In this document: positions 37,953 through 56,719 of the stretch, one piece after another
Numbering within the stretch: position 1 is the stretch's first letter
Layout of the letters: each line of letters begins with the position of its first letter
The notes under the pieces: generated by a model
The model's database searches: none
What the model was told of the DNA's origin: nothing
The model's input: the letters and a program-made list of their open reading frames with translations, nothing else
Translations under genes and position numbers: made by a program
Origin: an uncultured Solirubrobacterales bacterium
Lineage (GTDB): Bacteria > Actinomycetota > Thermoleophilia > Solirubrobacterales > JBBDJG01
DNA length: 64,000 nucleotides
Direction of reading: 5' to 3'
NCBI GenBank assembly: GCA_963774075.1
Contig: CAVZDP010000003.1
Span: 408,062 to 472,061, forward strand

Positions 37953-39335
37953 ATGGCCGTATACCGAGTCCTGGACGTCCAGGTTCCGGCCGAGCCGGCC
38001 GAGGAGCTGCTTGGTTCGTTCATCGACCTGCCCAAGGTGGGAGACGAAGGGGACGTGTTCGTGCTCCACGTCGTCGGCTGGGTTCTCGGCCGCCACTCTC
38101 CCGCGACCGCCGTCGAGGTCGTCTACCAGCCCGAGCCGGACATAGTGCGGCCGGGGCCGGACCGCGTGATCCGGATCACGCCCATCCGCGGCGACCGCGG
38201 CGACGTCGCCGCCGCCTACCCGGGGGTTCCGGCGGAGATCGACTGCCATTTCGAGTCGCTTCTCTCGGTAGTCGGACTCACGCCCGAGTTCGAGCTGCGC
38301 CTGAAAGCCGTGCTCGAGGACCAGACGCGCGTCCCGATCGGGTCGCTGCGAGTCCGGCACGAGCCGCTTCGCACCAGCTTCGAGCCGACGATGCAGCCGC
38401 TCACGCTGACCTGCCTGGGTCGCACCGGGACGACGTGGGTGATGGGGATGCTCGCCGCTCATCCGCAGATCGCCGTGTACCGCCGCTTTCCGTACGAGTC
38501 GAGCACCGCCAAGTACTGGATGCAAATGCTCAAGGTGCTCGCCGAGCCGTCGAACATGGTCCAGTCGTCCCACCCCGACACGTTCCACAACGACATCTGG
38601 CGCGTCGGCCACAACCCCTATTACGACGACGCGATCGCGAGCAACCCTACGCACAACGCCTGGTTCGGCCGGTCCTATGTGGAGCGCTTGGCGGCCTTCA
38701 GCCAGCAGAGCATCGAGGACTGGTACCGGACCCTTGCCGAGACGCAGGGACAGGAGAGCCCCCTCTACTTCGCGGAGAAGCACCTGTGGCCGAATTACAT
38801 CCCGGTGCTCATGCGCGAGCTGTACCCGCGCGCGAAGGAAATCTTTCTCGTGCGCGACTTTCGCGACATGGCGCTCTCGATCATGGCGTTCGACGCGAAG
38901 CGTGGCTGGGCCGGCTTCGGGCGCCGGGAAGGCACCACCGACGAGCAGTACCTGCAGGAGGTCCTGCGACCCGCTGCGCTCAGCATGGCCAACAGCTGGC
39001 GCACGCGGGGCTCGAGCTCTCATCTCGTGCGCTACGAGGACATGGTGCTCCAGCCCCGATCGACGCTGAGCGCCCTGCTCGAATACCTGGAGCTCGACGC
39101 TTCGCCCGACCTGGTCGACTCCTTGCTCGAGCAGGCTTCGATGGAGACCGACCAGGTTCGGCGCCACCGCACCACGCGCGACCCCCGCGAGTCGATAGGT
39201 CGCTGGCGGCGAGAGCGCGACGACCTTTTTCGCGAGGCATGCAACGCGGCGTTTGCGGACGTGCTGCCAGAGTTCGGTTATTCCGAGCACGGCTACACCG
39301 AGTCGGGCGTCTCGGAGTCCGGCGTAGGCTCGTGA
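37953..39335 (+). CDS. PAPS-dependent sulfotransferase with N-terminal unknown domain (N-ST paralog 2 of 3)
   Basis: It reads LTCLGRTGTTWVMGMLAAHP..IFLVRDFRDMALSIMAF..LVRYEDMVLQP..IGRWRRER. ATG 37953 is preferred over GTG 37938, which would overlap the upstream gene. Confidence 0.8.
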   Translation: MAVYRVLDVQVPAEPAEELLGSFIDLPKVGDEGDVFVLHVVGWVLGRHSPATAVEVVYQPEPDIVRPGPDRVIRITPIRGDRGDVAAAYPGVPAEIDCHFESLLSVVGLTPEFELRLKAVLEDQTRVPIGSLRVRHEPLRTSFEPTMQPLTLTCLGRTGTTWVMGMLAAHPQIAVYRRFPYESSTAKYWMQMLKVLAEPSNMVQSSHPDTFHNDIWRVGHNPYYDDAIASNPTHNAWFGRSYVERLAAFSQQSIEDWYRTLAETQGQESPLYFAEKHLWPNYIPVLMRELYPRAKEIFLVRDFRDMALSIMAFDAKRGWAGFGRREGTTDEQYLQEVLRPAALSMANSWRTRGSSSHLVRYEDMVLQPRSTLSALLEYLELDASPDLVDSLLEQASMETDQVRRHRTTRDPRESIGRWRRERDDLFREACNAAFADVLPEFGYSEHGYTESGVSESGVGS

Positions 39336-40480
39336 TAGCCGTCGTCGCGGGCTCCGTCGCCCAGCGTCCGGGGCGAGGCGGTCACACCTGGGTCTTCCTC
39401 CAGTACCTGCTCGGACTGCGCGAGCTCGGCTGGGAGGTGCTGCTGCTGGATCGCCTCGAGCCGGGCATGCCAACGGATGAGCTGGGACAGCCGTGCGACC
39501 CCGAGCGCTCGGTCAACGTCGCGTACATGCGCGAGGTGATGAGGGGCTTCGGCCTCGAAGAGAGCTACTCCATCTTTCTCGGCGACGGAGAGTCGATCGG
39601 GCTCACGCGAGAGGAGGCGGTCGAGCGGCTCGCCGCATCCGAGCTGCTGCTGAACGTGAACGGCTTCCTGACCGACCCGGACCTGCTCTCGCGAGCCTCC
39701 AAGCGCGTCTTCCTCGACATCGATCCGGGCTTCTGGCAGATGTGGCGAGAGCTCGGCCTCCACGACGCCTTCGGGGGCCACGACGCCTACGTGACGGTCG
39801 CAGAATCGATCGGCCGCCCGGGCTGCGCGGTCCCCACCTGCGGACTCGACTGGATCACCACGCCGCAGCCGGTGGTGCTGGACCAGTGGCCCATGGCCGC
39901 CGGCGCCGGCGGCCGCTTCACGAGCGTGGGGAGCTGGCGCGGGCCGTTTGCCCCGATCGAGTACGGCGGGGTCACCTACGGACTGCGCGTCCACGAGCTG
40001 CGCCGGTTCGCCGAGCTGCCCCGGCGTTCGAGCGAAGGATTCGAGCTCGCCCTGGACATCGACGCCGCCGATGCTGCGGACGCCCAGCTCCTGAGGGAGA
40101 ACGGGTGGTCCCTGGTGGATCCTGCTATCGCGGCGCGCGACCCTTGGGCGTACCGCTCTTACGTCCAGGGCTCGAAGGCCGAGCTGATGGTCGCCAAGAA
40201 CATGCCCGTGCGGGCGCGAAGCGGCTGGTTCAGCGATCGCAGCATCTGCTACCTCGCCTCGGGGCGGCCCGTCCTCGCGCAGGAGACGGGCTTCTCGGAC
40301 AACCATCCGACCGGGCGCGGGCTGGTGGCTTACGAGACGCTCGAGCAGGCGGTCGACGGCGCTTCGGCCATCGCGGCCGACTACGATCTTCACTCTCGCG
40401 CGGCGCGTGCCCTGGCCGAGGATCGCTTCGGCTCCAAAAAGGTGCTGACGCGCCTGCTGGAGAGGTTGGAGGTGGCATGA
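39332..40480 (+). CDS. ~380-aa GT-B-like protein (family member 2 of 4), function unassigned; candidate glycosyltransferase
   Basis: The GTG at 39332 overlaps the upstream stop (GTGA). It reads VIAVVAGSVAQRPGRGGHTWVFLQYLLGLRELGWEVLLLD..LLNVNGF..VFLDIDPGFWQMW..SGWFSDRSICYLASGRPVLAQETGFS..GLVAYETLEQAV. The 681-aa track ORF is a read-through artefact across the upstream sulfotransferase in another frame. Confidence 0.8.
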   Translation: MIAVVAGSVAQRPGRGGHTWVFLQYLLGLRELGWEVLLLDRLEPGMPTDELGQPCDPERSVNVAYMREVMRGFGLEESYSIFLGDGESIGLTREEAVERLAASELLLNVNGFLTDPDLLSRASKRVFLDIDPGFWQMWRELGLHDAFGGHDAYVTVAESIGRPGCAVPTCGLDWITTPQPVVLDQWPMAAGAGGRFTSVGSWRGPFAPIEYGGVTYGLRVHELRRFAELPRRSSEGFELALDIDAADAADAQLLRENGWSLVDPAIAARDPWAYRSYVQGSKAELMVAKNMPVRARSGWFSDRSICYLASGRPVLAQETGFSDNHPTGRGLVAYETLEQAVDGASAIAADYDLHSRAARALAEDRFGSKKVLTRLLERLEVA

Positions 40481-40559
40481 TCCGCGCGAGCGAGGCCCTT
40501 GCGGCGAAGGTGCGCAGGGCACGATCCGATGGACCCGACTCCGGGAGAGTGTCGAGCTG

Positions 40560-41114
40560 ATGGCAGGTCAAAAGACGGAGCTGAGAAGGCTGAACTGGGG
40601 CTGCGGCCCCTGGACGGTGGAGGGATGGATCAACTCGGACATCGCGGACCACCCCGGGGTGGAGCTCGTCTGCGACATTCGGGAGGGGTTGCCGCTCGAG
40701 GACGAGAGCATCGACTATGCCGTCAGCAACCATGCTCTGCCCGAGATTCCCTACTCCGACCTGCTGCCCACGCTGGACGAGCTCCGGCGGGTGCTGAAGC
40801 CAGGCGGCGTCCTGCGCCTGGCGCTGCCCGACATGGACAAGGGCATCGACGCCTACCGGTCCGGCGAGGAGGACTACTTCCTCATTCCCAACGAGGAGTG
40901 GCGCAGCATCGGCTCGAAGTTCGTCGTGCAGATGGTCTGGTACGGCTACTCACGCACGATGTTCAACCACGACTTCGTCGCGGAGCTGCTCATCAAGGCG
41001 CAGTTCTCGCAGGTCACTCGCTGCGAGTTCCAGCAGACGGCGAGCCCGTACCCGGAGATCGTCGAGATCGACAACCGCGAACGCGAGAGCCTGTTCGTCG
41101 AGGCAGTCAGGTAG
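40560..41114 (+). CDS. Class I SAM-dependent methyltransferase (small)
   Basis: It reads LRRLNWGCGPWTVEGWINSD..ESIDYAVSNHALPEIPY..LRRVLKPGGVLRLALPD. 184 aa. Confidence 0.75.
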   Translation: MAGQKTELRRLNWGCGPWTVEGWINSDIADHPGVELVCDIREGLPLEDESIDYAVSNHALPEIPYSDLLPTLDELRRVLKPGGVLRLALPDMDKGIDAYRSGEEDYFLIPNEEWRSIGSKFVVQMVWYGYSRTMFNHDFVAELLIKAQFSQVTRCEFQQTASPYPEIVEIDNRERESLFVEAVR

Positions 41115-41125
41115 GGCTTGCCGCC

Positions 41126-42475
41126 GTGGAGGCGTTGGTCGAGTTCTCGGACGTCCGCGTCCTCGAGACCGGCGGCGACGCGCTGTGGGGGTTCTCGCTC
41201 GACGGCCCGCGCGTCGGGCCGGACGCCGCCCCGGAGGGGCCCATCCGGGCCCACGCCTTCGACCTGCGGGGCTGGGTGCTCGGGCGGCGCGCGCGGGTGG
41301 AGGCCGTGGAGGTCCTGTACGCGGGGGCATGCCTTTGGCGCGTGCCGACCGACGTCAGGCGCCGCGACGTGGCCGAATCGTTCCCCGACGCGGAGGGCGC
41401 CGAGCACAGCGGCTTCTTCGTGCCGGTCAACTCGCTCTCCCTGCCGCCTGAGTTCGAGCTGCTGGTCGTGGCGGCGTTGAGCGATGGCACGAGGGTGGAG
41501 CTGGCCGAGATCCGGGGCAGCCGGCAAGCATTGCGCTTCGACCTCGAGCCCCGCCTGCGCCCTCTCATGGTGACGACGATCGGGCGCACGGGCTCGTCGA
41601 TGCTGGTGCACCTGCTGGGCGCGCACCCCGCCGTGGTCGCGTATCGCCCGTTTCGGACCGAGCCGCGGGTGGCGAGCTACTGGATCGGCGTCCTGCGCGC
41701 GCTCTCCGAGCCGGCTAGCTATCGGCGCCAGATACTCCAGGCACAGAACCTCCACGACCCCACATGGTGGCTCGGGCGAGAGGGAAGGCTGCCACGCCGC
41801 ACGCTCGACAGGGAGTTTCAGGACTGGCTCGGCTCCGACGCTGTGGAATCGCTGGCCGAGCTCTGCCGGAGCCGGATCGACGCGGTCTACTCGCGGATCG
41901 CCGACCTCTTCGACCGCCCGGATGCGACGTACTTCACCGAGAAGTTCCAGCCCGACGCGGTACCCGACCTCGTCTGGGAGCTGTACCCGAACGCGCGCGA
42001 GATCGTGCTGGTGCGCGACTTCCGCGACATGCTCTGCTCGATGCTCGCCTTCAACGCCAAGCGGGGCATCCAGGGCTTCGGCCGCCAGCGCGCCGACAGC
42101 GACAGCGAATTCGTCGAGGAGATCGGGAAGCCGGCCAAGGCGCTCGCGCGCAGCTGGGAGCGGCGCTCGGGGCAGGCGCACCTCGTGCGCTACGAGGAGC
42201 TCGTCGCGGATCCGGCGCGCACACTCGAAGCAATCCTTCGCTACGCCGATCTGGACTCCGGCCCGGAGGCGGTGGCGGCGATGAGGCAGAGCCTCGAGGA
42301 CGCCGAGGACGATGCTGTTGTCCACCGCACCGCCGAAGACGGGCCCGAAGCATCGGTGGGCCGCTGGCGTCGCGAGCTCCCCGACGAGCTGCGCGAGCAC
42401 GCGGGGCGATCCTTCGCGCCCGCGCTGGAGGCGTTCGGCTACCCCGTCGACGCAGCGACGCCTAAGAGCCTCTAA
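41126..42475 (+). CDS. PAPS-dependent sulfotransferase with N-terminal unknown domain (N-ST paralog 3 of 3)
   Basis: An in-frame GTG at 41126, just after the upstream stop, gives VEALVEFSDVRVLETGG. It continues VTTIGRTGSSMLVHLLGAHP..IVLVRDFRDMLCSMLAF..LVRYEELVADP..VGRWRREL. The 5' part of the 658-aa track ORF overlaps the methyltransferase in another frame. Confidence 0.8.
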   Translation: MEALVEFSDVRVLETGGDALWGFSLDGPRVGPDAAPEGPIRAHAFDLRGWVLGRRARVEAVEVLYAGACLWRVPTDVRRRDVAESFPDAEGAEHSGFFVPVNSLSLPPEFELLVVAALSDGTRVELAEIRGSRQALRFDLEPRLRPLMVTTIGRTGSSMLVHLLGAHPAVVAYRPFRTEPRVASYWIGVLRALSEPASYRRQILQAQNLHDPTWWLGREGRLPRRTLDREFQDWLGSDAVESLAELCRSRIDAVYSRIADLFDRPDATYFTEKFQPDAVPDLVWELYPNAREIVLVRDFRDMLCSMLAFNAKRGIQGFGRQRADSDSEFVEEIGKPAKALARSWERRSGQAHLVRYEELVADPARTLEAILRYADLDSGPEAVAAMRQSLEDAEDDAVVHRTAEDGPEASVGRWRRELPDELREHAGRSFAPALEAFGYPVDAATPKSL

Positions 42476-43642: not shown

Positions 43643-44413
43643 ATGCCCAGACGCTACGACCAGCTCGAGCTGCTTCCGGACGCGCCGCCGTACGGCGCCG
43701 AGCTGATGCGCCGGATCGGCCTTCGGGGCCTCCAGTGCGGCAGCGGCCCCAAGCTCCCTCCGGGCTGGATGAACACCGACATGGTGCACATCACCTCCAA
43801 GGCCGGTGAGGAAACCGAGAGGGGACGGATCGCGGTGCTCGACGGCAACTTCTACTTCATGGAGCACGATGCAACCGAGCCTTTCCCGTTCGAGGACGCC
43901 TCCTTCGACTGGGTCTACTCGGAGCACTTCATCGAGCATCTCGAACCCGCGGAGGCGATCGCCTGGCTGACCGAGATGCATCGCATCCTCCGCCCGGGTG
44001 GTCACATCCGGGTCAGCACCCCCGACATGGGCAAGTACATGCGCGGCTACGCCGATCCCGCGGGACAGTTCTTCGATCAGCACCACGAGCGGGTGGCCCC
44101 GCACCTGAAGCCGTTCGCGCCTGATGACGAATCCGTCCCGCTTCCGCGGCGGCAGTTCGCGCAGCGGTACATGCCGGGAGAGCAGGAGGTGCCCGCCAGG
44201 CGCGCCTTCCTCGTCAACCAGATCTTCTTCTTCTGGGGGCACAAGTGGATCTACGACTTCGAGGAGCTGCGGTGGGCGCTCTCCTGCGCGGGCTTCGACC
44301 CCGCGAACGTGGTCGAGCGCGGCTTCCGGGAGGGCAGCGCGCCCGAGCTGGCCCAGCTCGACCTGGAGCTGAGGAACGACGAGAGCGTGTACGCGGAGGC
44401 CGTCCGTACTTAG
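43643..44413 (+). CDS. Class I SAM-dependent methyltransferase, paralog of 8125-8874
   Basis: It reads LRGLQCGSGPKLPPGWMNTD..FDWVYSEHFIEHLEPAEAIAWLTEMHRILRPGGHIRVSTPD..WGHKWIYDFEEL. Confidence 0.85.
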   Translation: MPRRYDQLELLPDAPPYGAELMRRIGLRGLQCGSGPKLPPGWMNTDMVHITSKAGEETERGRIAVLDGNFYFMEHDATEPFPFEDASFDWVYSEHFIEHLEPAEAIAWLTEMHRILRPGGHIRVSTPDMGKYMRGYADPAGQFFDQHHERVAPHLKPFAPDDESVPLPRRQFAQRYMPGEQEVPARRAFLVNQIFFFWGHKWIYDFEELRWALSCAGFDPANVVERGFREGSAPELAQLDLELRNDESVYAEAVRT

Positions 44414-44898
44414 ACCCTCTCTCTCGGAGTTGGGGCGCCCTCCCGCTCGAGGATCACGACCGGGATCTCTCGGTGCGTCAACCGCCGGTACTGCTCAAAT
44501 CCGGAGTACTGCTCGAGAATGCTCGGCCACAGCCGATTCTCCTCTTCGGCCGATGCACGCCTGGCACGAACTACGCGATGCTCCCCGCGGAAGTCGACTT
44601 CAGCTTGGGGATTCGCCTGAAGGTTGAGCCACCACGCGGGCGGACGGTCCTGCCCCGCATTTGACGGCACTACTACCAGGTCATCGCCGTGGGGCATGCA
44701 GGCTATGACCGTTGATCGTGCCGCCCCGGATTTACGCCCCGTCGTGGTGAGGGCGAGCACAGGCTGACCAGCCGCAAAGAGAAACGAGCGTTTGAGCCGG
44801 CCGCCGCTCATCCGCAGGATCCTTGCGTGTAGCCGAGTTACGCGGGTCGCGATGAAGCGAGGCCGGCTGAGGATGTTGCTAACGCGGGCCAGGCTCAC
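44410..44898 (-). CDS. Deazaflavin (F420H2)-dependent nitroreductase-family protein (DDN/DUF385-like), copy 1
   Basis: It reads VLALTTTGRKSGAARSTVIACMPHGDDLVVVPSNAGQDRPPAWWLNLQANPQAEVDFRGE..EENRLWPSILEQYSGFEQYRRLTHREIPVVILE. Its stop codon overlaps the convergent methyltransferase stop. Confidence 0.85.
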   Translation of the reverse strand: MSLARVSNILSRPRFIATRVTRLHARILRMSGGRLKRSFLFAAGQPVLALTTTGRKSGAARSTVIACMPHGDDLVVVPSNAGQDRPPAWWLNLQANPQAEVDFRGEHRVVRARRASAEEENRLWPSILEQYSGFEQYRRLTHREIPVVILEREGAPTPRERV

Positions 44899-45206
44899 CC
44901 GAAGAGCCTAACTCCTTTCGCGCAATGCACAAGCCCGCGAACCGAAGGTCGCATTAGCTACAACGGACCGGTTGGGAAGACGATCAGCTTTGCGGGCGGT
45001 TTCCTTTTGAGCCAACGCGGCTGCGTACCGCTCGAGGTGCGAGTTCGAGGGCGTCGTCCGACGCGCGCGCGCATTCCATTCGGCGTCGGTCGCTGCTGAG
45101 AGCAGTCGCGTCAGCGCCCAGACTTTTTTGGGTACTCGATCCACGCCGCCTGGGCCGTGGTTCGTCGCGGGACGCTGCTGGGTTTCGCGATGCGACAGCG
45201 CGGCTT

Positions 45207-45615
45207 CTACGTGGAGTCTTCCGCAATGCCAGCGGCTTCGAAGGCCCGGCTCCGATCGGTGTGTATCGAGAGGCGAGCGACCTTGCCGCCAACCAAGGTC
45301 CAGACATGGAAGAAGCGTTGCCAAACCTCGGAATCGCTTCCCTTTAGCCGCCCCCCGTCGCGGATGCGAGTGATCACCTGCTTCTCGTCGGCATAGACCA
45401 CCTCTTCGATTTCGATACGGAAATCGTCAAAGGTCTTCCAGTACGGAAGCATGCTTTCCTGGACGGCGTCGTATCCCCGAAGGACCCCAACCGTATCCAG
45501 GGGGACATCTGAATCATCAGATTCAAAGTCTGGCTCGAATAGCTCCCGAGGTGGCTCGAGGCGCACAGTGACCCCGTCATAGATACGCGACCACGTCGAG
45601 GTTCGCTTGCGACAT
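45207..45615 (-). pseudogene. NTF2/SnoaL-like protein gene with an apparent 1-nt frameshift after codon ~9
   Basis: ATG 45615 gives MSQANLDVVAYL then a stop at 45577. The +1 frame continues without a stop as RIYDGVTVRLEPP.. into the 119-aa ORF 45207-45566, which ends ..KVARLSIHTDRSRAFEAAGI. The total span is 409 nt (3n+1). Alternatively the gene simply starts at GTG 45566 and lacks the first helix. Confidence 0.5.
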
Positions 45616-45737
45616 CTCTCGCGGAGTATAGGTTCCTACCTCGCCGCTCCTGGCGGACCGCGGTGCTGCAGTTCGCGCAGGCAGTCGCACGGCCTCCGCG
45701 CAATCCAGCAGCGGCCGACCCGACCCCTGCGAACGAT

Positions 45738-46058: not shown

Positions 46059-46257
46059 GGTGAGCCAAGTATCCACGATTTCTATGTAGCTGAAGGGCTC
46101 GGGTCCGTGGACGCAGCGCTGCCCGCCCCGCGGTTCTCGTCCAGGACGCAAGTGATGGCCGATAAGCTGGAGTCGCCCCGGCGCACGACACCAGGACGGG
46201 TCCGTAGCTCACACACCGACACTGCACAGCTTCTCGCTGTGGGAGGGACGAGGCACG

Positions 46258-46518: not shown

Positions 46519-46679
46519 CGCAAAGATCCGTTCCACGCGGCTGCCTTCCGGACCAACGCCGCGTGGCGGTCGTTTCTCGCGCAATGGGGCAGCGAGCATG
46601 GGCTGGCCAGATAAATCTCCCCCTTCGGAAGGGCCGGGCCGACTGCACGCAGCCGCCGTCGCGGCCGATCGGCGGATGC

Positions 46680-47872: not shown

Positions 47873-47977
47873 GAGTCGCAGTATCGCGACGCCGCCCATC
47901 CGCGTAAAGGGGTCTCAGGGTGTTGCTCCTCGGCGATCAGAGCGCCACGCACCCCTTTTGTGTACGCGTCATGCTGT

Positions 47978-50149: not shown

Positions 50150-51001
50150 GTGGGAGACCTTGGCGGCGGGAGCGCGAAGCAGGGCGCTCACTACCTCTCC
50201 GCCTGCGCGATCTACCGCGACGAGGGGCCCTACTTGCGCGAATGGATCGAGTTCCATCGGCTGGTCGGGGTGGAGCGCTTCTTCCTGTACGACAACGCAA
50301 GCCACGACGACCACCTTCAGGTGCTCGCGCCCTACCTCGACGAAGGGATCGTTACCCTCCACGACTGGCCGGTGTTCCCGGGGCAGCTTCAGGCTTACGA
50401 GCACGCGCTGCGAGAGCACGGCCCCGAGTCGCGCTGGATCGCCTTTCTCGACCTCGACGAGTTTCTCTTCTCTCCCACGGGCAGGCCGCTGCCGGAGATC
50501 CTCGCGGACTACGAGCAATACCCGGGGGTCGGAGCGAACTGGGCCGTCTTCGGCACCTCGGGCCACGTGGAGAAACCGCAGGGGCTGGTGACGGAGAGCT
50601 ACGTCTGGCGCTGCGAGGACGAGCAGGAGGGGAACCGACTCGTCAAGAGCATCGTCGACCCGACCCGGGCGGTCTCGTGTCCGGACCCGCACTTCTTCGT
50701 GTACGCCGACGGGGCACTCGCGGTGGACGAAAACAAGGAGACGATTCGCTACGGGCGAACCGCACCCCCCGCCTGGTCCCGCCTGCGGGTGAACCACTAC
50801 TTCACGAAGTCGGAGCAGGAGTTCCGCGCCAAGCTCGCCAAGGGCAAGGCCGACAAGCCAGAGGGCCGCGAGCCCGCCGTCGCAAACATCGCGCGGATCA
50901 CGGAGGCGCTCCACCGGGAGCGCGACGAGAAGATCCTGTCCTACGCGCCCGACCTGCTCGAAGCGCTGTCGCGCCGCCGGCGGGCCGCCCCGGCGACATG
51001 A
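50150..51001 (+). CDS. GT92-family glycosyltransferase (tandem copy 1 of 4)
   Basis: It reads YLSACAIYRDEGPYLREWIEFHRLVGVERFFLYDNASHDDHLQVLAPYLDEGIVTLHDWP..RWIAFLDLDEFLFSP..ANWAVFGTSGH..LRVNHYFTKSEQEF. The GTG start at 50150 is the only start codon upstream of the conserved YLS block. Confidence 0.85.
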   Translation: MGDLGGGSAKQGAHYLSACAIYRDEGPYLREWIEFHRLVGVERFFLYDNASHDDHLQVLAPYLDEGIVTLHDWPVFPGQLQAYEHALREHGPESRWIAFLDLDEFLFSPTGRPLPEILADYEQYPGVGANWAVFGTSGHVEKPQGLVTESYVWRCEDEQEGNRLVKSIVDPTRAVSCPDPHFFVYADGALAVDENKETIRYGRTAPPAWSRLRVNHYFTKSEQEFRAKLAKGKADKPEGREPAVANIARITEALHRERDEKILSYAPDLLEALSRRRRAAPAT

Positions 51002-51789
51002 GCGCGTACCTCTCCGCCGCCGCGATCTACCGCGACGAGGGGGCCTACCTGCGCGAGTGGATCGAGTTCCACCGCCTCGTCGGCGTGCAGCGGTTCTTCC
51101 TCTACGACAACCGCAGCTCCGACGATCACCTCGACGTGCTCGCACCCTACGTCGACGATGGAACAGCGGTGCTGCACGAGTGGCCCGAGGAGCCAGGCCA
51201 GCGCGGCGCATACGACCACTGTCTACGCGAGTACGGGAGCGATTCGCGCTGGATCGCGTTCCTCGACCTGGACGAGTTCCTCTTCTCGCCGACCCTTCAG
51301 CCGCTCTCCGAGCTGCTGGTGGAATACGAGCAATGGGCTGCCGTCGGCGTCAACCGCGCGACGTTCGGCACGTCCGGCCTGAAGACCAGGCCCGACGGGC
51401 TGGTGATCGAGAGCTACGTGATGTACTGGCCGATGGTGGCGAGCATCAAGAGCATCGTGGACCCGAGCCGCACCGTCCGCTACCAGAACCCGCACGCGTT
51501 CGTGTACCGCGACGACGGCTTCGCGGTCGACGAGCACAAAGGCCCGATCGAAGGCTGGTTCACGAAGGAGTTCACCCACGAGCGGCTTCAGATCAATCAC
51601 TACTACACGCGCTCGGAGGCCGAGTTCAGGCACAAGCTCGAGCACGGTCGAGCGGATACCGGCGAGCTGCGTGAGCAGCCGAAGAGTTGGGAGAGGGTGA
51701 GCGGGCGCGAGCGCGACGAGACGATCACCGCGTACGCGCCGGCGCTGAAGGAAGCTCTCGCGAGTCCCCCCACCACGACTGGCGCGTGA
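50998..51789 (+). CDS. GT92-family glycosyltransferase (tandem copy 2 of 4)
   Basis: The ATG at 50998 overlaps the upstream stop (ATGA). It reads MSAYLSAAAIYRDEGAYLREWIEFHRLVGVQRFFLYDNRSSDDHLDVLAPYVDDGTAVLHEWP..RWIAFLDLDEFLFSP..LQINHYYTRSEAEF. Confidence 0.85.
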   Translation: MSAYLSAAAIYRDEGAYLREWIEFHRLVGVQRFFLYDNRSSDDHLDVLAPYVDDGTAVLHEWPEEPGQRGAYDHCLREYGSDSRWIAFLDLDEFLFSPTLQPLSELLVEYEQWAAVGVNRATFGTSGLKTRPDGLVIESYVMYWPMVASIKSIVDPSRTVRYQNPHAFVYRDDGFAVDEHKGPIEGWFTKEFTHERLQINHYYTRSEAEFRHKLEHGRADTGELREQPKSWERVSGRERDETITAYAPALKEALASPPTTTGA

Positions 51790-52598
51790 AGCACTACCTC
51801 TCGGTCTGCGCGATCTATCGCGACGAGGCGTCCTACCTGCACGAATGGGTGACCCTGCACCGCCTCGCCGGCGTGGAGCACTTCTACCTCTACGACAACG
51901 GCAGCGTCGACGAGCACGAGGAGGTGCTCGAGCGCTACGTCGCCGAAGGCCTGGTGGACGTGCTTCCCTGGGACGTCCATCCGGGACAGCTGAAGGCCTA
52001 CGAGCACTGCCTGGCGGAGCGACGGGACGAGTCGCGCTGGATCGCGTTCATCGACATCGACGAGTTCCTCTTCTCCCCGACACTGCGCCCGCTCCCGGAG
52101 CTGCTGGCTGGATATGAGCAGTGGCCGGGAGTCGTCGCGAACTGGGCCGTTTTCGGCACGTCGGGCCACGAGACGAGGCCGGACGGACTCGTCATCGAGA
52201 GCTATCTGAATCGCTCCGGCAACGAGCGGCTGAACAGCCACGTCAAGACCATCGCGGACCCACGGCGAGTCGAGCGGCCGGGTGGCAACCCGCATTTCTT
52301 GGTCTACTCCGAGGGCGAAGCCGTCGATGAGACCGGAGGGCCGGTCGATGGGCCACCGTGGAGCTTCACGGCGGAGGTTCACTTCGACCTGCTGCGCGTC
52401 AACCACTACTACACGAAGTCCGAGCAGGAGTTCCGCACGAAACTCGCCAAGCCCAAGGCACATGGCCCGAAGTACCAGGTGCCCGTCGCCGAGCGCGAAC
52501 GCCTCGAGCCGGCGATTGCGGCGCTGAACGACATCGAGGACCGAACGATCCTCGCGTACCTTCCCAGGCTCCGAGAGGCGCTAGATGCGCTGCAATAA
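51786..52598 (+). CDS. GT92-family glycosyltransferase (tandem copy 3 of 4)
   Basis: The GTG at 51786 overlaps the upstream stop (GTGA). It reads VKHYLSVCAIYRDEASYLHEWVTLHRLAGVEHFYLYDNGSVDEHEEVLERYVAEGLVDVLPWD..RWIAFIDIDEFLFSP..LRVNHYYTKSEQEF. Confidence 0.85.
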   Translation: MKHYLSVCAIYRDEASYLHEWVTLHRLAGVEHFYLYDNGSVDEHEEVLERYVAEGLVDVLPWDVHPGQLKAYEHCLAERRDESRWIAFIDIDEFLFSPTLRPLPELLAGYEQWPGVVANWAVFGTSGHETRPDGLVIESYLNRSGNERLNSHVKTIADPRRVERPGGNPHFLVYSEGEAVDETGGPVDGPPWSFTAEVHFDLLRVNHYYTKSEQEFRTKLAKPKAHGPKYQVPVAERERLEPAIAALNDIEDRTILAYLPRLREALDALQ

Positions 52599-52607: not shown

Positions 52608-53633
52608 TTGAAGCCGTACCTTTCCGTCTGGGCGCTCTATCAGGACGAGGCGCCGTATCTCCGAGAGTGGATCGAGTTCCACCGCCTGATGGGCGTGGAG
52701 CGCTTCTACCTGTACGACCACGACAGCGTCGACGACCACCGCGAGCAGCTCGCGCCCTACGTCGCCGACGGCACGGTGGTGTTTTACGACTGGCCGATCG
52801 ACCCGGGGCAGGTCCAGGCTGCCAACCATTGCCTCGAGCACCACCGAGACGAGACGCGCTGGCTCACCTTCCTCGACCTCGACGAGTTCCTCTTCTCGCC
52901 GACGGGCAGGCCGCTTCCCGAGGTGCTCGCCGACTACGAGCAGTGGCCCGGCGTCGTGGTCAACTGGGCGACGTTCGGCACGTGCGGCCACGAGACGCCG
53001 CCCGACGGGCTCGTGATCGAGAACTACACCTCCCGTACCGACAACCCTGGGATCAACGGGAACAAGAAGACGATCGTCGACCCGGCCCGCGTGATCCAGA
53101 ACCGTGGCGGGTTGTTCGACTACACCGAGGGCTTCTCGGTGGACGAAAACATGGAGCAGGCGGACGGCCGCGTGTCGGAGAAGGTCTCGTTCTCGCGCCT
53201 CCGGATCAACCACTATCACACGAAGTCGGCGATCGAGTTCGAGCGCAAGATCGCCAAGCCTCGAGCGGACCGGCGCGGCGTGCGAGATACGAGCAAGCGG
53301 CTGCGGGGGAAGATCCTGGGCGGCCTGAACGAGGTCCACGACGAGACGCTCGTCCCGTATGGGCCGGCGGTGCGCGAGGCGCTAGAGCGCACCGAGAGCC
53401 GCTGGCGCGAGGCGGGCGGTGGCGCGCGTGGCAACGCTTTCGAGGTCGACCCGCAGGCGCTCCAGTTCGCGCGCGACGTCCTGATGGGCGTCGCGGTCTG
53501 CTCGGCCGACGGCGATCCGTACCCGCACGTGGACCTGGTCGAGAAGGCGGCGGCCATGCTCGTCGGGCGGCCGTACCCCGAGCGCGACGGGCCCGAGACG
53601 CCCGAGACGTCCGAGACGTCCGAGACGGCGTAA
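52608..53633 (+). CDS. GT92-family glycosyltransferase (tandem copy 4 of 4) with a ~90-aa C-terminal extension
   Basis: The TTG start is at 52608. It reads MKPYLSVWALYQDEAPYLREWIEFHRLMGVERFYLYDHDSVDDHREQLAPYVADGTVVFYDWP..RWLTFLDLDEFLFSP..LRINHYHTKSAIEF. The tail ends in PETPETSETSETA. Confidence 0.85.
   Translation: MKPYLSVWALYQDEAPYLREWIEFHRLMGVERFYLYDHDSVDDHREQLAPYVADGTVVFYDWPIDPGQVQAANHCLEHHRDETRWLTFLDLDEFLFSPTGRPLPEVLADYEQWPGVVVNWATFGTCGHETPPDGLVIENYTSRTDNPGINGNKKTIVDPARVIQNRGGLFDYTEGFSVDENMEQADGRVSEKVSFSRLRINHYHTKSAIEFERKIAKPRADRRGVRDTSKRLRGKILGGLNEVHDETLVPYGPAVREALERTESRWREAGGGARGNAFEVDPQALQFARDVLMGVAVCSADGDPYPHVDLVEKAAAMLVGRPYPERDGPETPETSETSETA
53592..53627 (+). repeat. Four tandem 9-nt units (CCCGAGACG x2, TCCGAGACG x2) encoding PET-PET-SET-SET at the 3' end of the last GT92 gene
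   Basis: Read directly from the sequence. The units lie at 53592-53600, 53601-53609, 53610-53618 and 53619-53627. The stop codon is at 53631-53633. Confidence 0.9.
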
Positions 53634-53636
53634 CCG

Positions 53637-54797
53637 ATGCCCGCGGTTGTCGTCGGCGGCGCTGTCGCCAACAAGCTGCTGAACGGCGGCGAGGCCTGGG
53701 TTCGCCTGAGCTGGCTGCTGGGCCTGGCGCGGCTGGGCTGCGACACGTACTTCGTCGAACAGATACACCCTTCGAGCTGCGTGGACCGCGACGGGCGACC
53801 CGCGGAGTTCGAGGACTCCGCCAACCGTCGGTACTTCGACGCGGTCATGCGCGAGTTCGGGCTCGAGCGCTCGTCGGCGCTGCTCCTCGAGGGGAGCGAG
53901 CACACGAGCGGCATGGCCTACGACGATCTACTCGAGCTGGCGGCATCGGCCGACCTGCTGATCAACGTCAGCGGTCACCTCAGCGCCGAGCCGGTCATGA
54001 CGCGGCTGCGGCGCAAGGCCTACGTCGACCTCGACCCCGGCTTCACCCAGTTCTGGCACGCGAGCGGCCGCCCCGGCGCCCGCCTGGAGGGACACGACTG
54101 GTTCTTCACGGTGGGCGAGAACATCGGGAGACCGTCCAGCACCGTGCCCACCGGGGGCATCGACTGGCGCCCCGTGCGCCCACCCGTCGTGCTCGACGAG
54201 TGGCCTCGGGCGGAGATTCTCGAAGCGCGGCGCTTCACGACGATCGCCACCTGGCGCAGCGGTTACGGCACGGTGGAGCACGAAGGCCGCACGTACGGCC
54301 TCAAGGTGCACGAGTTCCGCAAGATCGTGGACCTTCCCCGGCGCGTGCGCGCCCGTTTCGAGCTCGCGCTCGACATCCATCCCGGCGACTCACGCGATCT
54401 GGAGTCGCTTCGCGAGCATGGCTGGCAGATCGTGGACCCGCGGGAGGTGGCGGTGACCCCGGATGCGTTCCGCGCCTACGTGCAGGGCTCCGGAGCTGAG
54501 TTCTCGGTGGCGCAGGGCGTCTACGTCGACACGCGCTCCGGCTGGTTCAGCGACAGGACCGTGCGTTACCTCGCCTCGGGAAGGCCGGCTCTGGTGCAGG
54601 AGACCGGGTTCAGCGACAACTACCCGACGGGCGAGGGCCTGCTCTCCTTCTCGTCGCTCGAGGAGGCGGTGGCGGGCGCCGACGCGATCGAATCCCGCTA
54701 TGAGGAGCACAGCGAGGCGGCGCGGGCGCTGGCGGAGCGCTTCTTCGACTCAGACGACGTCCTGAGCTCGTTTCTGGAGCAGGTGGGAGTTCGGTAG
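53637..54797 (+). CDS. ~380-aa GT-B-like protein (family member 3 of 4)
   Basis: It reads MPAVVVGGAVANKLLNGGEAWVRLSWLLGLARLGCDTYFVE..LINVSGH..AYVDLDPGFTQFW..SGWFSDRTVRYLASGRPALVQETGFS..GLLSFSSLEEAV. It is colinear with the ORFs at 39332 and 55586 and with the N-terminus of the ORF at 4103. Confidence 0.8.
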   Translation: MPAVVVGGAVANKLLNGGEAWVRLSWLLGLARLGCDTYFVEQIHPSSCVDRDGRPAEFEDSANRRYFDAVMREFGLERSSALLLEGSEHTSGMAYDDLLELAASADLLINVSGHLSAEPVMTRLRRKAYVDLDPGFTQFWHASGRPGARLEGHDWFFTVGENIGRPSSTVPTGGIDWRPVRPPVVLDEWPRAEILEARRFTTIATWRSGYGTVEHEGRTYGLKVHEFRKIVDLPRRVRARFELALDIHPGDSRDLESLREHGWQIVDPREVAVTPDAFRAYVQGSGAEFSVAQGVYVDTRSGWFSDRTVRYLASGRPALVQETGFSDNYPTGEGLLSFSSLEEAVAGADAIESRYEEHSEAARALAERFFDSDDVLSSFLEQVGVR

Positions 54798-55562
54798 ATG
54801 AGCGATCCCACGAGCCACGCGCAGCACGGGGACCCGGCGCAGGCGCCCGCTGCGACCCCGGACTGGCCCACCTTCCCCGGCGGTCCGCGCGCTCAGCGGC
54901 TGCACTCGATGGTGATGACGCGCCACTTCATCCTGATACACGTCCCGCGCACGGGCGGACAGTTCATTCGCAAGGTGTGCTTCGAGCACCTGCCGGCGAC
55001 GTGGTTCATCCGCAACGCGCTCGACGCGCATACTCCGTACGACGTGATCGCGGACGACTTCGCCCAGCTCCCGATGTTCGCTGTGGCACGCAATCCGTGG
55101 GACTGGTACGTGTCCTGGTACCACTACCTGACCCAGACCGACGCCGCCGACAGGACCGGCCCGATGTGGACCTCCGCCTTCGACAGCGGTAGAAGCGACT
55201 TCAAGTCCACGGTCACGGCAGCGTGCAGCGGGCGCGGGTTCACCAACCCGCGCACGGAGCCCATCATGCGCGAGCTCGACTGCGACCACCTCTCCGCCGT
55301 CTACATGCGGATCGCGGGCCGGGGAGTGGATGCCGGGCGCGTGCAGGTCGGGCGCTTCGAATCGCTCCAGCTCGATTTCCTCGCGTTCCTCGAGCGCCAT
55401 CAGGTGCCGACCGGGCGCGCGTTCGAGCGAACGGTCATGGCCGAGCCACCGTTCGGGTCCAGCAAGCGGGGGCGCTACCAGGACTACTACGACGATGAGC
55501 TGCGCGATCTGGTGGCCGAGAAGGCGCGCCGCCTGATCGCCGCCCACGGGTACGAGTTCTGA
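54798..55562 (+). CDS. Sulfotransferase-family protein (HxPRTGG type)
   Basis: It reads FILIHVPRTGGQFIRKV (the PAPS-binding loop) and is related to the ORF at 37349. ATG 54798 directly abuts the upstream TAG. An alternative start at ATG 54909 (MVMTRHF) would match the paralog's N-terminus. Confidence 0.7.
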   Translation: MSDPTSHAQHGDPAQAPAATPDWPTFPGGPRAQRLHSMVMTRHFILIHVPRTGGQFIRKVCFEHLPATWFIRNALDAHTPYDVIADDFAQLPMFAVARNPWDWYVSWYHYLTQTDAADRTGPMWTSAFDSGRSDFKSTVTAACSGRGFTNPRTEPIMRELDCDHLSAVYMRIAGRGVDAGRVQVGRFESLQLDFLAFLERHQVPTGRAFERTVMAEPPFGSSKRGRYQDYYDDELRDLVAEKARRLIAAHGYEF

Positions 55563-55585
55563 GCGACCGCCGGCTGAGACTGATC

Positions 55586-56719
55586 GTGAGCGGGATGGTC
55601 GCCGCCGTCCCGCGTCAGGGGGGCGCCGCCTGGGCGGTGCTCCAGTACGTGCTCGGGCTGCGGCGGCTGGGCCACGAGGTCCTGCTCGTGGAGGAGTACG
55701 GCCAGCGACCGGACGAGTCGGGCGGAAAGCCGCTCGCCCAGTCCGCGGCAGGCCTCTACTTCAGCGGACTCGCCTCCCGCTTCGGGATCGAGGACTCCGC
55801 GGCGCTCCTGCGCGCCGGGAGCGAGGAGACGGTCGGGCTGCCGTACGCGCGCCTCGTCGAAGCGGCCGCCGGCGCCGACGCACTCGTCAACATCTCGGGC
55901 ATCCTCACCGACGAGCGCCTGCTCGAGCCGATACCCGTCCGCGTCTACCTCGACCTCGATCCCGCGTTCACGCAGCTGTGGCAGGACGAGGGCATCGACA
56001 TGCGCTTCGGCGGCCACACGCACTTCGCGACGGTCGGCAAGGCGATCGGCACGCCAGAGTGCGACCTCCCCACGTGCGGGCGCGACTGGATCACGACCCT
56101 CCCACCCGTCGTGCTGGAGCACTGGCCGCGAGCAGAGAAGATCGAGCACGACGCTCTCACCACCATCGCGAACTGGCGCGGTTACGGCTCGGTGGAGCGC
56201 GACGGCGTTCATTACGGCCAGAAGGTTCATTCGCTGCGCGAGCTGATCGAGCTTCCCCTCAAGGCCCCGATCCGCTTCCTGCTCGCCCTCGCGATCCACC
56301 CGGACGAGGCGCGCGACCTCGAGGCACTCGAGCGCAACGGATGGGAGTTGACGAGCGCCGACCTCGCCGCCGGCACGCCGGACGCCTACCGCGACTTCAT
56401 CCGGGGATCGCTGGCCGAGTTCGGGTTCGCCAAGAGCGGCTACGTGCTGTCTGGCTCCGGCTGGTTCAGTGATCGCAGCGCCTGCTATCTGGCGTCCGGG
56501 CGGCCGGTGATCGCGCAGGAGACCGGCTGGAGCCGGTTCATCCCCGCCGGAGAGGGACTGTTCGCGTTCAGCAGCCAGGAAGACGTCGTCGCTGCTGTCG
56601 TCGAGATGAAGAGCGACTATGAGCGTCATGCCCGCGCCGCTCGGCGGCTGGCAGAGCGCCATCTGGACTCGGACGTGGTGTTGCCGCGCCTCTTGTCAGA
56701 GCTCGGTCTGGACGCGTGA
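55586..56719 (+). CDS. ~380-aa GT-B-like protein (family member 4 of 4)
   Basis: It reads GGAAWAVLQYVLGLRRLGHEVLLVE..LVNISGI..VYLDLDPAFTQLW..SGWFSDRSACYLASGRPVIAQETGWS..GLFAFSSQEDVV. Confidence 0.8.
   Translation: MSGMVAAVPRQGGAAWAVLQYVLGLRRLGHEVLLVEEYGQRPDESGGKPLAQSAAGLYFSGLASRFGIEDSAALLRAGSEETVGLPYARLVEAAAGADALVNISGILTDERLLEPIPVRVYLDLDPAFTQLWQDEGIDMRFGGHTHFATVGKAIGTPECDLPTCGRDWITTLPPVVLEHWPRAEKIEHDALTTIANWRGYGSVERDGVHYGQKVHSLRELIELPLKAPIRFLLALAIHPDEARDLEALERNGWELTSADLAAGTPDAYRDFIRGSLAEFGFAKSGYVLSGSGWFSDRSACYLASGRPVIAQETGWSRFIPAGEGLFAFSSQEDVVAAVVEMKSDYERHARAARRLAERHLDSDVVLPRLLSELGLDA

Follow-up and report, generated by a model that had tools for sequence, protein, structure and literature searches.

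The 64-kb stretch of DNA that was analysed (hereafter the window) carries four colinear homologues of about 380 residues, 36–47% identical in pairwise alignments and sharing 79 invariant columns. We refer to this family as FAM. All four reading frames listed for it in an earlier note are present, and the family profile searched against the six-frame translation of the window returned exactly these four (E 1e-136 to 1e-204) and no fifth copy. Of the motif blocks quoted in that note, GWFSDR[ST]xxYLA[SA]GRP..Q[ED]TG is intact in all four copies, while DPGF.Q.W and two further blocks show small departures in the fusion copy and, in copies 2 and 3, at individual positions. The relevant features are:

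1–1482, +, membrane GT2, MftF/EpsD/PgaC-like, about 4 TM helices, 5' end cut by the window edge (Pfam Glyco_trans_2_3, GT21)
1479–3995, +, ABC exporter of MsbA/NdvA/HepA type, TMD + NBD half-transporter, 838 aa (Pfam ABC_membrane, ABC_tran)
4103–6601, +, FAM_F fusion protein (FAM profile, alignment; FAM_F orthologues follow the ABC exporter in other phyla)
about 4103–5350, +, GT-B-like FAM_F domain of this fusion (aa 1 to about 415)
aa 457–680 of the 4103–6601 protein, +, GT2 domain
aa 705–832 (approximately) of the 4103–6601 protein, +, conserved, unassigned C-terminal domain of about 120 aa
9000–13409, large secreted PKD/GSDH protein
37938–39335, +, sulfotransferase, 465 aa, N-terminal extension of about 150 aa (PF13469, Sulfotransfer_3, 5e-18; PF00685, Sulfotransfer_1, 1.5e-12)
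39332–40480, +, FAM1 (copy 1), GT-B-like, 382 aa (alignment, family profile; group 48–72% identical across loci)
40560–41114, +, small SAM-methyltransferase-like protein, 184 aa (Pfam Methyltransf_11 1.9e-8; homologues in 30 loci)
41126–42475, +, second sulfotransferase of the same 450-aa type, start codon inferred (PF13469 1.2e-17)
53637–54797, +, FAM2 (copy 2), 386 aa, the AlphaFold2-modelled protein (group 45–69% identical)
54798–55562, +, short divergent sulfotransferase, 254 aa, lineage-specific, between FAM2 and FAM3 (below Pfam threshold; homologue profile)
55586–56719, +, FAM3 (copy 3), 377 aa, in all cases adjoining the kinase gene (group 46–65% identical)
56716–57735, +, small-molecule kinase of APH/choline-kinase fold, 339 aa (PF01636 in homologues; AlphaFold2 pLDDT 91.4)
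57776–58480, +, YdjC-family carbohydrate deacetylase (Pfam YdjC 7.6e-46)
58540–59082, +, APS kinase, supplying PAPS, start codon inferred (Pfam APS_kinase 4e-57)
59101–62613, large secreted protein of 1170 aa
62591–64000, large secreted RTX protein

Genes of the cluster are tightly coupled, with start and stop codons that overlap or abut: the stop of the 37938–39335 sulfotransferase overlaps the FAM1 start (GTGA), and the kinase start overlaps the FAM3 stop (GTGA). The start of this sulfotransferase lies at 37938, where the earlier note gave 37953.

In NCBIfam the best matches of the membrane GT2, of the exporter (MsbA 447 bits, glucan exporter 429 bits, HepA 358 bits) and of the YdjC protein (ChbG-like, HpnK-like) were all below cutoff. 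The C-terminal extension of the exporter, about 190 aa, had no Pfam match. In the PDB, the YdjC protein matched chitooligosaccharide deacetylase 7vi8 (1.5e-23). Best Foldseek matches of the kinase were 3csv, choline kinases, homoserine kinase, NahK and APHs (E 2e-11 to 1e-8), and WaaP was not among the top matches listed. Since these structural neighbours of the model are free small-molecule kinases and not WaaP, the role of a precursor kinase would fit as well as that of a glycan kinase. Neither a phosphoglycosyl transferase or Wzx/Wzy nor an obvious acceptor gene was found.

Four orthologous groups in a conserved cluster

Related genes were surveyed in 79 loci of soil bacteria from about ten phylum-level lineages; these loci were picked by similarity to the copies of the window, so frequencies among them do not represent an unbiased survey. 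Identity within subfamilies is 0.51–0.58 versus 0.34–0.44 between them, a nearest-neighbour test upheld the four groups for 226 of 227 sequences, and UPGMA recovered the same four. The copies are ancient orthologous subfamilies, FAM_F, FAM1, FAM2 and FAM3, inherited together. They are not local duplicates. That the copies form four distinct, ancient orthologue groups had escaped the earlier note.

Gene order across these loci is fixed: membrane GT2, MsbA-like ABC exporter, FAM_F fused to GT2/GT4, FAM1, FAM2, FAM3, APH-like kinase, YdjC. The part from FAM1 to YdjC recurs in Actinomycetota, Acidobacteriota, Gemmatimonadota, Planctomycetota, Chloroflexota, Verrucomicrobiota, Dormibacterota and Binatia. 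Constant partners of any copy are the other three paralogues, the kinase (62 of the 79 loci, adjoining 60 FAM copies) and YdjC (54 of the 79). The exporter and the membrane GT2 are present in every locus whose 5' flank extends far enough, the latter as conserved first gene, with orthologues directly upstream of the exporter in loci L017, L022, L024, L030, L040 and L042. Natural fusions of ABC::FAM_F(::GT2) type (P0196, P0213, P0239, P0253), FAM3::kinase (P0139, P0182, P0252), FAM2::FAM3, GT4::FAM2 and FAM_F::GT2::GT4::MTase were also found, although fusion proteins predicted from metagenomes may be frameshift artefacts. As far as the predicted sequences go, the ABC–FAM_F, FAM2–FAM3 and FAM3–kinase fusions support functional coupling. 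On the best reading, the four FAM genes are the core of a glycan synthesis-and-export cluster of about 15 kb, co-inherited after ancient divergence.

Fold and conserved residues

The AlphaFold2 model of FAM2 (pLDDT 94.6, pTM 0.93) consists of two Rossmann-like domains and a C-terminal helix, which bears out the GT-B-like architecture proposed in the earlier note. Foldseek returned 262 PDB matches at E<=1e-3 and none to a non-GT fold. Top ranks, with E 7e-11 to about 1e-8, went to GT-B enzymes of the retaining kind, most of them GT4: tll1591 (7fga), BshA (6n1x/3mbo), PimA (2gej/4n9w), ManT (7qsg), HepE (4xsu), MshA (3c48) and TreT; inverting GT1 enzymes come further down. With the GT4 enzymes FAM shares the two-Rossmann fold with its C-terminal crossover helix, a Gly-rich loop after N-beta1, an Arg at the end of C-beta1, a Lys/Arg at the start of C-alpha1 and an A-x-G-x-P-V helix-strand motif in the C-domain. 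The distance from them is nevertheless large. TM-scores are just 0.5–0.62 and identity 10–12%, no Pfam GT4 model reaches FAM, and profile-profile comparison with the GT4 enzymes encoded in the window gave no significant match. FAM also differs by a beta-hairpin insertion (208–222), a long conserved inter-domain linker (G.P.C..PT.G..W...QPVVLD.WP) and its invariable occurrence as four co-inherited paralogues. As had been suspected, the classical EX7E signature is missing: both glutamates are absent, the second mapping to a variable column (C/R/C/T), and an invariant G-W-F-S-D-R loop is found instead. With the residues gone that hold donor sugar and ribose in GT4, it is uncertain which type of donor FAM uses.

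At the sequence level no model of Pfam, NCBIfam or PDB captures FAM or assigns it a function, in line with the earlier note, and the source annotation reads "hypothetical protein". The family is large (4936 clusters at 50% identity, E<=1e-3). The sole model detecting it, always below threshold, is PF13524 (Glyco_trans_1_2), with 35 of 52 members at E<=0.1 and a best value of 6.7e-6; with the cutoff at 25, window copies reached 20.2 or 18.2 bits or gave no match. These matches always cover the C-terminal 100 aa or so and leave the N-terminal domain uncovered. Together with a weak profile match to the C-domain of WbaZ-1, they agree with the earlier comparison of the C-terminal half to a GT1/GT4 nucleotide-sugar domain. 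The PF13524 consensus presumably keeps a Glu at the second EX7E position, unlike FAM.

Residues kept in all four subfamilies (227 sequences, copy-2 numbering) are the GG loop 17–18 after N-beta1, N110, D133-P134, Q138, H153, R207 at the C-beta1 end, K/R223 at the C-alpha1 start, G302-W-F-S-D-R307, Q321 and T323-G324. In the model they lie at strand C-termini, the substrate-binding side of GT-B enzymes, a pattern of conservation like that of an active site.

Proposed role in the assembly of an exported glycan

Our preferred reading, with a probability of roughly 0.6, is that FAM is a previously undescribed family of GT-B glycosyltransferases, most like retaining GT4 and distantly related to the CgeB-type PF13524 family, and that its four members build the conserved core of an exported glycan. 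The membrane-anchored GT2 would prime an acceptor, possibly a lipid, on the cytoplasmic face of the membrane. FAM_F, which carries a fused GT2/GT4 domain and in certain organisms is joined to the exporter as well, would act with FAM1, FAM2 and FAM3; each would draw on a common nucleotide sugar and add a sugar of its own, presumably with retention of configuration, one after another or as a hetero-complex. The resulting oligosaccharide core may be phosphorylated by the kinase coupled to FAM3 and lose an N-acetyl group from a HexNAc residue to YdjC, and the product would then cross the membrane through the MsbA-like exporter. Variable genes would decorate it by lineage, here probably with heavy sulfation and methylation.

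The choice of donor allows another, unlikely reading, namely that FAM proteins are GT-B-fold transferases working without nucleotide sugars, either on sugar-1-phosphates made by the kinase (phosphorylase-type) or by transfer of phospho-groups or polyol-phosphate, like TagF. GT-B enzymes using sugar-1-phosphates exist, as GT35 phosphorylases and the GT4 trehalose phosphorylase. None of the four subfamilies has kept the ribose-binding Glu of EX7E, the core cluster contains no nucleotidyltransferase or nucleotide-sugar synthesis gene, and the kinase, whose gene overlaps that of FAM3 and in some cases is naturally fused to it, has the anomeric kinase NahK among its structural neighbours (4wh2, 4ocj; E 9e-9). 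However, NahK is no closer to it than choline or homoserine kinases, there is just one kinase for four FAM proteins, and housekeeping nucleotide sugars would suffice. Moreover, R207, K/R223 and the Gly-rich loop are placed where GT4 enzymes hold the diphosphate, and all of the nearest structural matches are binders of UDP or GDP sugars.

Sulfotransferases

In the window every free-standing FAM copy adjoins a sulfotransferase, as the earlier note had observed; this holds because both neighbours are recognisable as such, 37938–39335 by clear Pfam matches and 54798–55562 as a divergent member. The latter reaches only 16.3 bits for PF00685 (cutoff 22), but the profile of its homologues matches solved sulfotransferases (about 17 of 24 matches; 5x2b at E 7e-5). 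Its 3'-PB motif (RNPWDWYVS versus RNPKDTAVS) and the region with a nearly invariant His align within the significant stretch, while the match of the PKTGG loop to PKSG lies only in another stretch, which by itself falls short of significance. The 41126–42475 protein is 36–41% identical to the other two of its type.

That note took the adjacency as a hint at paired function. In its strong form, each FAM would be a dedicated partner of the neighbouring sulfotransferase, which might sulfate the transferred sugar, and the pairing would define the family. Co-occurrence does extend outside this genome: sulfotransferases are found in 45 of the 79 loci, far above what we would expect near a random gene, and the 37938–39335 protein is an orthologue of a gene directly upstream of FAM1 in 27 of 68 cases from several phyla (best-hit E 1e-92 to 1e-103 in L017, L040, L042 and L050). 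Beyond FAM1 the pairing does not recur. A sulfotransferase directly precedes FAM2 in 1 of 73 cases, FAM3 in 1 of 66 and FAM_F in 0 of 18, so for these three the idea is largely refuted; the one between FAM2 and FAM3 is confined to the window and a single other locus, L078. In the sequence span covered, 34 of the 79 loci carry none, among them 15 of the 49 that span 15 kb or more, and among the fusion proteins examined there was no FAM::sulfotransferase, against FAM::kinase, FAM::FAM and ABC::FAM. Dedicated pairs are therefore quite unlikely. Given these counts, sulfation is a common optional tailoring step and not the defining partner of FAM. APS kinase occurs in 9 of the 79 loci, only in sulfotransferase-rich relatives. 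Variable genes of the window comprise about 5 sulfotransferases, the APS kinase, methyltransferases, 7 GT4, about 8 GT2-domain proteins and 4 GT92-like proteins.

Protein glycosylation and scaffolds as unlikely alternatives

PF13524/CgeB being the only named sequence relative, FAM proteins might also be CgeB-like protein O-glycosyltransferases decorating the large secreted proteins nearby and not builders of free or lipid-linked glycans. CgeB, a putative UDP-sugar glycosyltransferase, has been proposed to modify the spore-crust protein CgeA (PMC13577073). The 1170-aa and RTX proteins are likewise encoded after the cluster in L078 and in some further Solirubrobacterales loci. However, the large proteins occur in only 2–8 of the 79 loci, all from close relatives, whereas the FAM core is kept across phyla. 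Its context is an exporter-linked glycan cluster and not a spore crust, and the membrane GT2 and the fusion to a lipid- or glucan-type exporter suit glycan assembly better, so we regard this role as distinctly improbable. Very improbable is that one or more paralogues are catalytically dead scaffolds or chaperones for GT2/GT4, like GtfB for GtfA: fixed stoichiometry and order, the FAM2::FAM3 fusion and the constant fusion of FAM_F to GTs all suggest a complex, but the same cleft residues are kept at >=90% in all four subfamilies, and only six well-conserved columns differ between these, none in the GWFSDR, R207 or GG motifs.

Likeness to known systems

For the preferred reading, that of four glycosyltransferases building an exported glycan core, two functional analogies can be considered. 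Inner-core assembly of LPS employs GT9 heptosyltransferases WaaC/WaaF/WaaQ, kinases WaaP/WaaY and the flippase MsbA. There too, serial paralogous GT-B enzymes act on the cytoplasmic face; by analogy and not homology, a protein-kinase-fold sugar kinase would phosphorylate the core, an MsbA-type exporter would flip the product, and a conserved core would carry variable outer decoration. Unlike this system, FAM does not belong to GT9, the kinase resembles small-molecule kinases, lipid A and Kdo genes are lacking in the cluster, and its carriers include diderms but also the monoderm Actinomycetota and Chloroflexota.

Tailoring of Nod factors involves the synthase NodC, deacetylase NodB, sulfotransferase NodH, NodPQ for PAPS, methyltransferase NodS and exporter NodIJ. 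Its analogous components here may be the membrane GT2, a HexNAc deacetylase, sulfotransferases with APS kinase, methyltransferases and an ABC exporter. However, the deacetylase is YdjC and not NodB/CE4, the exporter is of MsbA and not ABC-2 type, and the membrane GT2 matches NodC weakly; the Nod system, for its part, has fewer GTs and lacks any counterpart of the four FAM proteins.

In line with export of the product, in two acidobacterial loci (L011 and L044) a gene for an outer-membrane beta-barrel lies between FAM2 and FAM3.

The four copies and their orthologue groups

All four open reading frames named in the earlier note are present in the window, where GC content is 64–70% (mean ~68%) and the plus strand holds most genes, and they translate to the quoted proteins, designated here as the FAM family:

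39332-40480, copy 1, FAM1 (382 aa)
53637-54797, copy 2, FAM2 (386 aa)
55586-56719, copy 3, FAM3 (377 aa)
4103-6601, FAM_F, the first ~415 aa of an 832-aa fusion protein

In the family alignment A1 they are collinear from end to end, with 79 invariant columns and identities to copy 1 of 47, 45 and 36%. The motif blocks previously described for them were correct, with small deviations mainly in the fusion copy. The family profile, searched against the six-frame translation of the window, found exactly these four (E 1e-136 to 1e-204) and no fifth copy; the same scan ruled out that the N-termini of the X::GT2 proteins (650 aa) contain further copies. The similarity among the four copies is far beyond chance, and their number is four, not more.

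A scan of species-representative genomes yielded at least 556 relatives. The 79 loci analysed (77 from the scan and 2 from exact look-ups) were picked by similarity, and frequencies registered among them are indicative only. Identity of the window copies to their own orthologues in other phyla is 45–72% versus 36–47% to each other, and the mean identity is 0.51–0.58 within groups versus 0.34–0.44 between them. For 226 of 227 sequences the nearest neighbour from another locus was a member of their own group, and UPGMA recovers four groups: FAM_F (fusion), FAM1 (39332), FAM2 (53637) and FAM3 (55586). Recent local duplication is ruled out: orthologues from other phyla are nearer to each copy than its window paralogues are. 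In total the search scored over 7,700 homologues, the source-supplied names among the matches listed being all “hypothetical protein”, and the family comprises 4,936 clusters (50% identity, E≤1e-3). It is abundant in such little-studied soil lineages as Solirubrobacterales, Acidimicrobiia, Vicinamibacterales and Gemmatimonadota.

Fold, conserved residues and relation to known families

The AlphaFold2 model of copy 2 (pLDDT 94.6, pTM 0.93) contains two Rossmann-like beta/alpha/beta domains separated by a cleft, and a C-terminal helix that runs back to the N-domain. Its order of secondary structures and the Foldseek matches are those of a GT-B fold, which bears out the GT-B-like character suggested earlier. 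Foldseek against PDB gave 262 matches at E≤1e-3, of which the best 50 are all GT-B glycosyltransferases. Top ranks belong to retaining enzymes, mostly GT4 (tll1591, BshA, PimA, ManT, HepE, MshA and TreT); glycogen synthase is found further down, and inverting GT1 enzymes begin at about rank 30. Among the matches listed E-values range from 7e-11 to 2e-7, identity is ~8–16% and TM-scores are mostly 0.5–0.62, down to ~0.40. On these matches the GT-B assignment is solid, and a solved close relative is absent.

By fold, as judged from the model, the family is nearest to GT4, and by sequence to PF13524 (Glyco_trans_1_2, CgeB-like). Matches of the window copies to this Pfam family cover the C-terminal ~100 aa and reach 20.2 and 18.2 bits, below its gathering threshold of 25 bits; copy 1 had no PF13524 match in the Pfam search. 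In a sample of 52 members from all subfamilies 35 match PF13524 at E≤0.1 (best 6.7e-6), and the precomputed label is carried by 3 of 120 close homologues. PF00534 and PF13692 (Glycos_transf_1) matched neither the window copies nor any of the 52 members, NCBIfam search of the window copies gave nothing meaningful, and PDB sequence searches with profiles A1 and A3 returned only chance-level or weak C-terminal matches. CgeB itself is only a putative UDP-sugar transferase (PMC13577073).

The EX7E motif, reported before as not obvious, is absent. Its position was set by alignment to the C-domain of GT4 enzyme WbaZ-1 (LAsGrPv versus MASGKPV) and to GT4 proteins of the window; comparison with the six GT4 paralogues by hhalign was not significant (E 0.044, probability 1.2%) and was used solely for this placement. 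In copy 2 numbering the first Glu maps to G302 or S305 of the invariant G-W-F-S-D-R loop, and the second one to column 310, which is variable (C/R/C/T). Because both family thresholds were missed and EX7E is absent, we assigned the family to neither GT4 nor PF13524; it offers a natural case for studying GT-B donor binding without EX7E glutamates.

Residues conserved in at least 90% of 227 sequences are common to all four subfamilies: GG17-18, N110, D133/P134/Q138, H153, R207, K/R223, the GWFSDR loop, Q321 and T323-G324. In the copy 2 model they follow beta-strands on the cleft side. G17-G18, R207 and K/R223 are conserved where topology would place the Gly-rich loop and the putative Arg/Lys pair for the donor diphosphate, as in GT4.

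Conserved gene cluster

Among the 79 loci the order FAM1-FAM2-FAM3, APH-like kinase, YdjC is shared by loci from Solirubrobacterales, Acidimicrobiia, Vicinamibacterales, Thermoanaerobaculia, Gemmatimonadota, Planctomycetota, Chthoniobacterales, Chloroflexota, Dormibacterota and Binatia. In loci whose flank extends far enough, the first genes of the cluster encode a membrane GT2 with four TM segments, an ABC exporter similar to MsbA/NdvA/HepA, and FAM_F, the latter being fused to a GT2 or GT4 domain and a conserved ~120-aa C-terminal domain. The neighbours of 253 FAM copies were another FAM in 154 cases, the kinase in 60 and a sulfotransferase in 26. Genes are tightly packed, in the window with GTGA overlaps between the upstream sulfotransferase and FAM1 and between FAM3 and the kinase. 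Natural fusions include ABC::FAM_F(::GT2), FAM2::FAM3, FAM3::kinase, GT4::FAM2 and FAM_F::GT2::GT4::methyltransferase. In two acidobacterial loci an outer-membrane beta-barrel gene stands between FAM2 and FAM3, which is compatible with an exported product. The kinase gene of the window and these insertions are:

56716-57735, kinase gene
L011:12215-15016, CarboxypepD_reg + outer-membrane beta-barrel (PF25183) gene
L044:3621-6347, the same type of gene, in a Vicinamibacterales locus

The overlapping ORF 56619-57779 was rejected as spurious. The nearest matches to the kinase model (pLDDT 91.4) are small-molecule kinases with the APH/choline-kinase fold, the anomeric kinase NahK among them, and YdjC resembles chitooligosaccharide deacetylase 7vi8 (E 1.5e-23). 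The Pseudomonas Pap cluster, which also has a YdjC gene, is unrelated and encodes a membrane protein of flippase type. A literature search found no description of the FAM family or its cluster. The ABC exporter of the window carries a C-terminal extension of ~190 aa past the nucleotide-binding domain (3411-3992) that has no Pfam match.

Sulfotransferases

Adjacency of FAM copies to sulfotransferases, from which a paired function had been surmised, is true within the window (37938-39335 and 54798-55562). The first of these genes encodes a clear sulfotransferase. The product of the second is below the Pfam threshold (16.3 versus 22 bits); a profile of its 38 homologues matches solved SULTs (5x2b at 7e-5, 7d1x, 7eov and others). 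The significant stretch covers a 3'-PB motif (vRNPWDWYVSwY versus vRNPKDTAVSMFHY) and a nearly invariant His, and a PSB-like loop (PkTGG versus PKSG) lies only in a stretch not significant by itself. On these profile matches 54798-55562 can be placed in the sulfotransferase fold.

Outside this genome co-occurrence was found as well: at least one sulfotransferase is encoded in 45/79 loci by iterated profile (32/79 by phmmer alone, an undercount) and in 34/49 of those ≥15 kb. Adjacency recurs for FAM1, which has an orthologue of 37938-39335 immediately upstream in 27/68 cases from several phyla; FAM2 (1/73), FAM3 (1/66) and FAM_F (0/18) almost never adjoin a sulfotransferase. The 254-aa sulfotransferase at the FAM2/FAM3 position occurs only in the window and in locus L078, and APS kinase lies inside the cluster in just 9/79 loci. 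On these counts sulfation is a tailoring step that is frequent and in part conserved, but dispensable. The window represents an extreme version of the cluster, rich in sulfation and glycosylation genes: ~5 sulfotransferases, APS kinase, 7 GT4, ~8 GT2-domain proteins, 4 GT92-like proteins and several methyltransferases.

Three ~450-aa sulfotransferases (35945-37336, 37938-39335 and 41126-42475) are 36–41% identical over nearly full length and have a common N-terminal extension of ~150 aa with no domain assignment. ORF 40499-42475 was ruled out as a single 658-aa protein; it resolves into methyltransferase 40560-41114, in another frame, followed by a sulfotransferase. Between two sulfotransferases lies a 203-aa protein (37337-37948) with no Pfam match, which recurs in 6 loci.

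Proposed pathway and alternatives

Fold, paralogy and synteny of the family are near certain, and we regard FAM as a new family of the GT-B type, unusual in its obligate set of four paralogues. Leloir activity is predicted at the level of fold and motif. One can assume that the membrane GT2 primes an acceptor, to which FAM_F and FAM1-3 would each add one specific residue, with a common nucleotide sugar as donor; the closest folds and the Gly-rich loop make retaining chemistry probable. The kinase coupled to FAM3 may then phosphorylate the core and YdjC de-N-acetylate it; the ABC exporter would translocate the product, and lineage-specific glycosyltransferases, sulfotransferases and methyltransferases would elaborate the glycan. 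We give this overall mechanism a probability of roughly 0.6; for sequential or complex action of the FAM proteins on a conserved core the odds seem about even. At the level of function the cluster is like LPS inner-core assembly, which likewise combines a set of paralogous GT-B enzymes with a kinase and MsbA; its tailoring genes are reminiscent of the decoration of Nod factors.

A wider reading is offered tentatively, as somewhat less probable than its opposite. FAM_F and FAM1-3 might constitute a new CAZy-level GT-B family, an assembly line that needs all four members and may take the form of a hetero-complex on the MsbA-like exporter and the kinase. Its product might be a glycoconjugate, so far unrecognised and either exported or held at the cell surface, whose conserved core is phosphorylated, partly de-N-acetylated and, in about half of lineages, sulfated; it would be common to soil bacteria of about ten phylum-level lineages, both monoderm and diderm. 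The module points to a bacterial glycoconjugate that is shared widely and still undescribed, and a four-paralogue GT-B module in an exporter-linked cluster suggests a testable function for thousands of orphan genes. Bacterial glycans that carry sulfate are rare, and they are of biotechnological interest.

In the boldest version of the assembly line, loss of EX7E would mean a non-nucleotide donor (sugar-1-phosphate) delivered by the fused kinase. That the kinase supplies sugar-1-phosphate or another non-nucleotide donor is a reading suggested by the lack of EX7E and by the fusions to the kinase; it has to be set beside the expected location of the diphosphate Arg/Lys pair, and we consider it unlikely. 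Slightly less credit is due to sulfotransferase pairing as a defining feature of the family: conspicuous in the window, it is largely confined to FAM1 elsewhere, and the initial lead is corrected in that the kinase/YdjC/exporter core, rather than sulfotransferases, should be pursued as the partner. Equally doubtful is CgeB-like glycosylation of neighbouring secreted proteins, suggested by the PF13524 similarity and set against a cluster that recurs with its own membrane GT2 and exporter. That FAM proteins are non-catalytic scaffolds is highly improbable, because conservation of the cleft-side residues in all four subfamilies argues for four active enzymes, and catalytic activity, judged from sequence and model, is likely.

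Other genes of the window

A module made up of two GT4 and one X::GT2 protein of ~650 aa is present several times, at 21556-26240, 26888-31743 and 32523-35964 (plus strand) and at 17397-20837 (minus strand); two copies are full, one has a single GT4 and one is partial and inverted. Identity is 45–60% among the six GT4 and 41–47% among the four X::GT2; the ~370-aa N-terminal X region has no Pfam match and does not belong to the FAM family. Another recurring element with no Pfam match is the ~120-aa domain (~6215-6598, 7746-8141, 31888-32260 and 20856-21600; 34–52% identity), located at the C-termini of the FAM_F fusion and of GT2 6609-8141, within 31744-32781 and twice in 20829-21731. In other phyla FAM_F fusions end with this domain, which also occurs immediately upstream of FAM1.

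The 539-aa protein 13441-15060 (minus strand), with no Pfam or NCBIfam match, has homologues in 14/79 loci, mostly Solirubrobacterales; the metagenomic protein P0134 has such a homologue joined to the C-terminus of FAM2 (E 8e-116). An unrelated block on both strands (44410-48517), composed of two F420H2-dependent quinone reductases and an alpha/beta hydrolase, splits the glycan cluster between methyltransferase 43643-44413 and the GT92-like genes. The latter, lying just upstream of FAM2, and the large, probably secreted proteins of the window are:

48577-50139, minus strand, GT92-like/GT2_4 glycosyltransferase
50150-51001, plus strand, GT92-like/GT2_4 glycosyltransferase
51687-52598, plus strand, GT92-like/GT2_4 glycosyltransferase
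52608-53633, plus strand, GT92-like/GT2_4 glycosyltransferase
9000-13409, plus strand, 1469-aa GSDH + PKD-repeat protein, probably secreted
59101-62613, minus strand, 1170-aa protein with no confident domain, probably secreted
62591-64000, minus strand, RTX-repeat protein cut by the window end, probably secreted

Among the 79 loci the GT92-like/GT2_4 genes were found only in L078. The 1170-aa and RTX-repeat proteins, absent from this position in other phyla, adjoin the cluster also in L078 and in a few close relatives.
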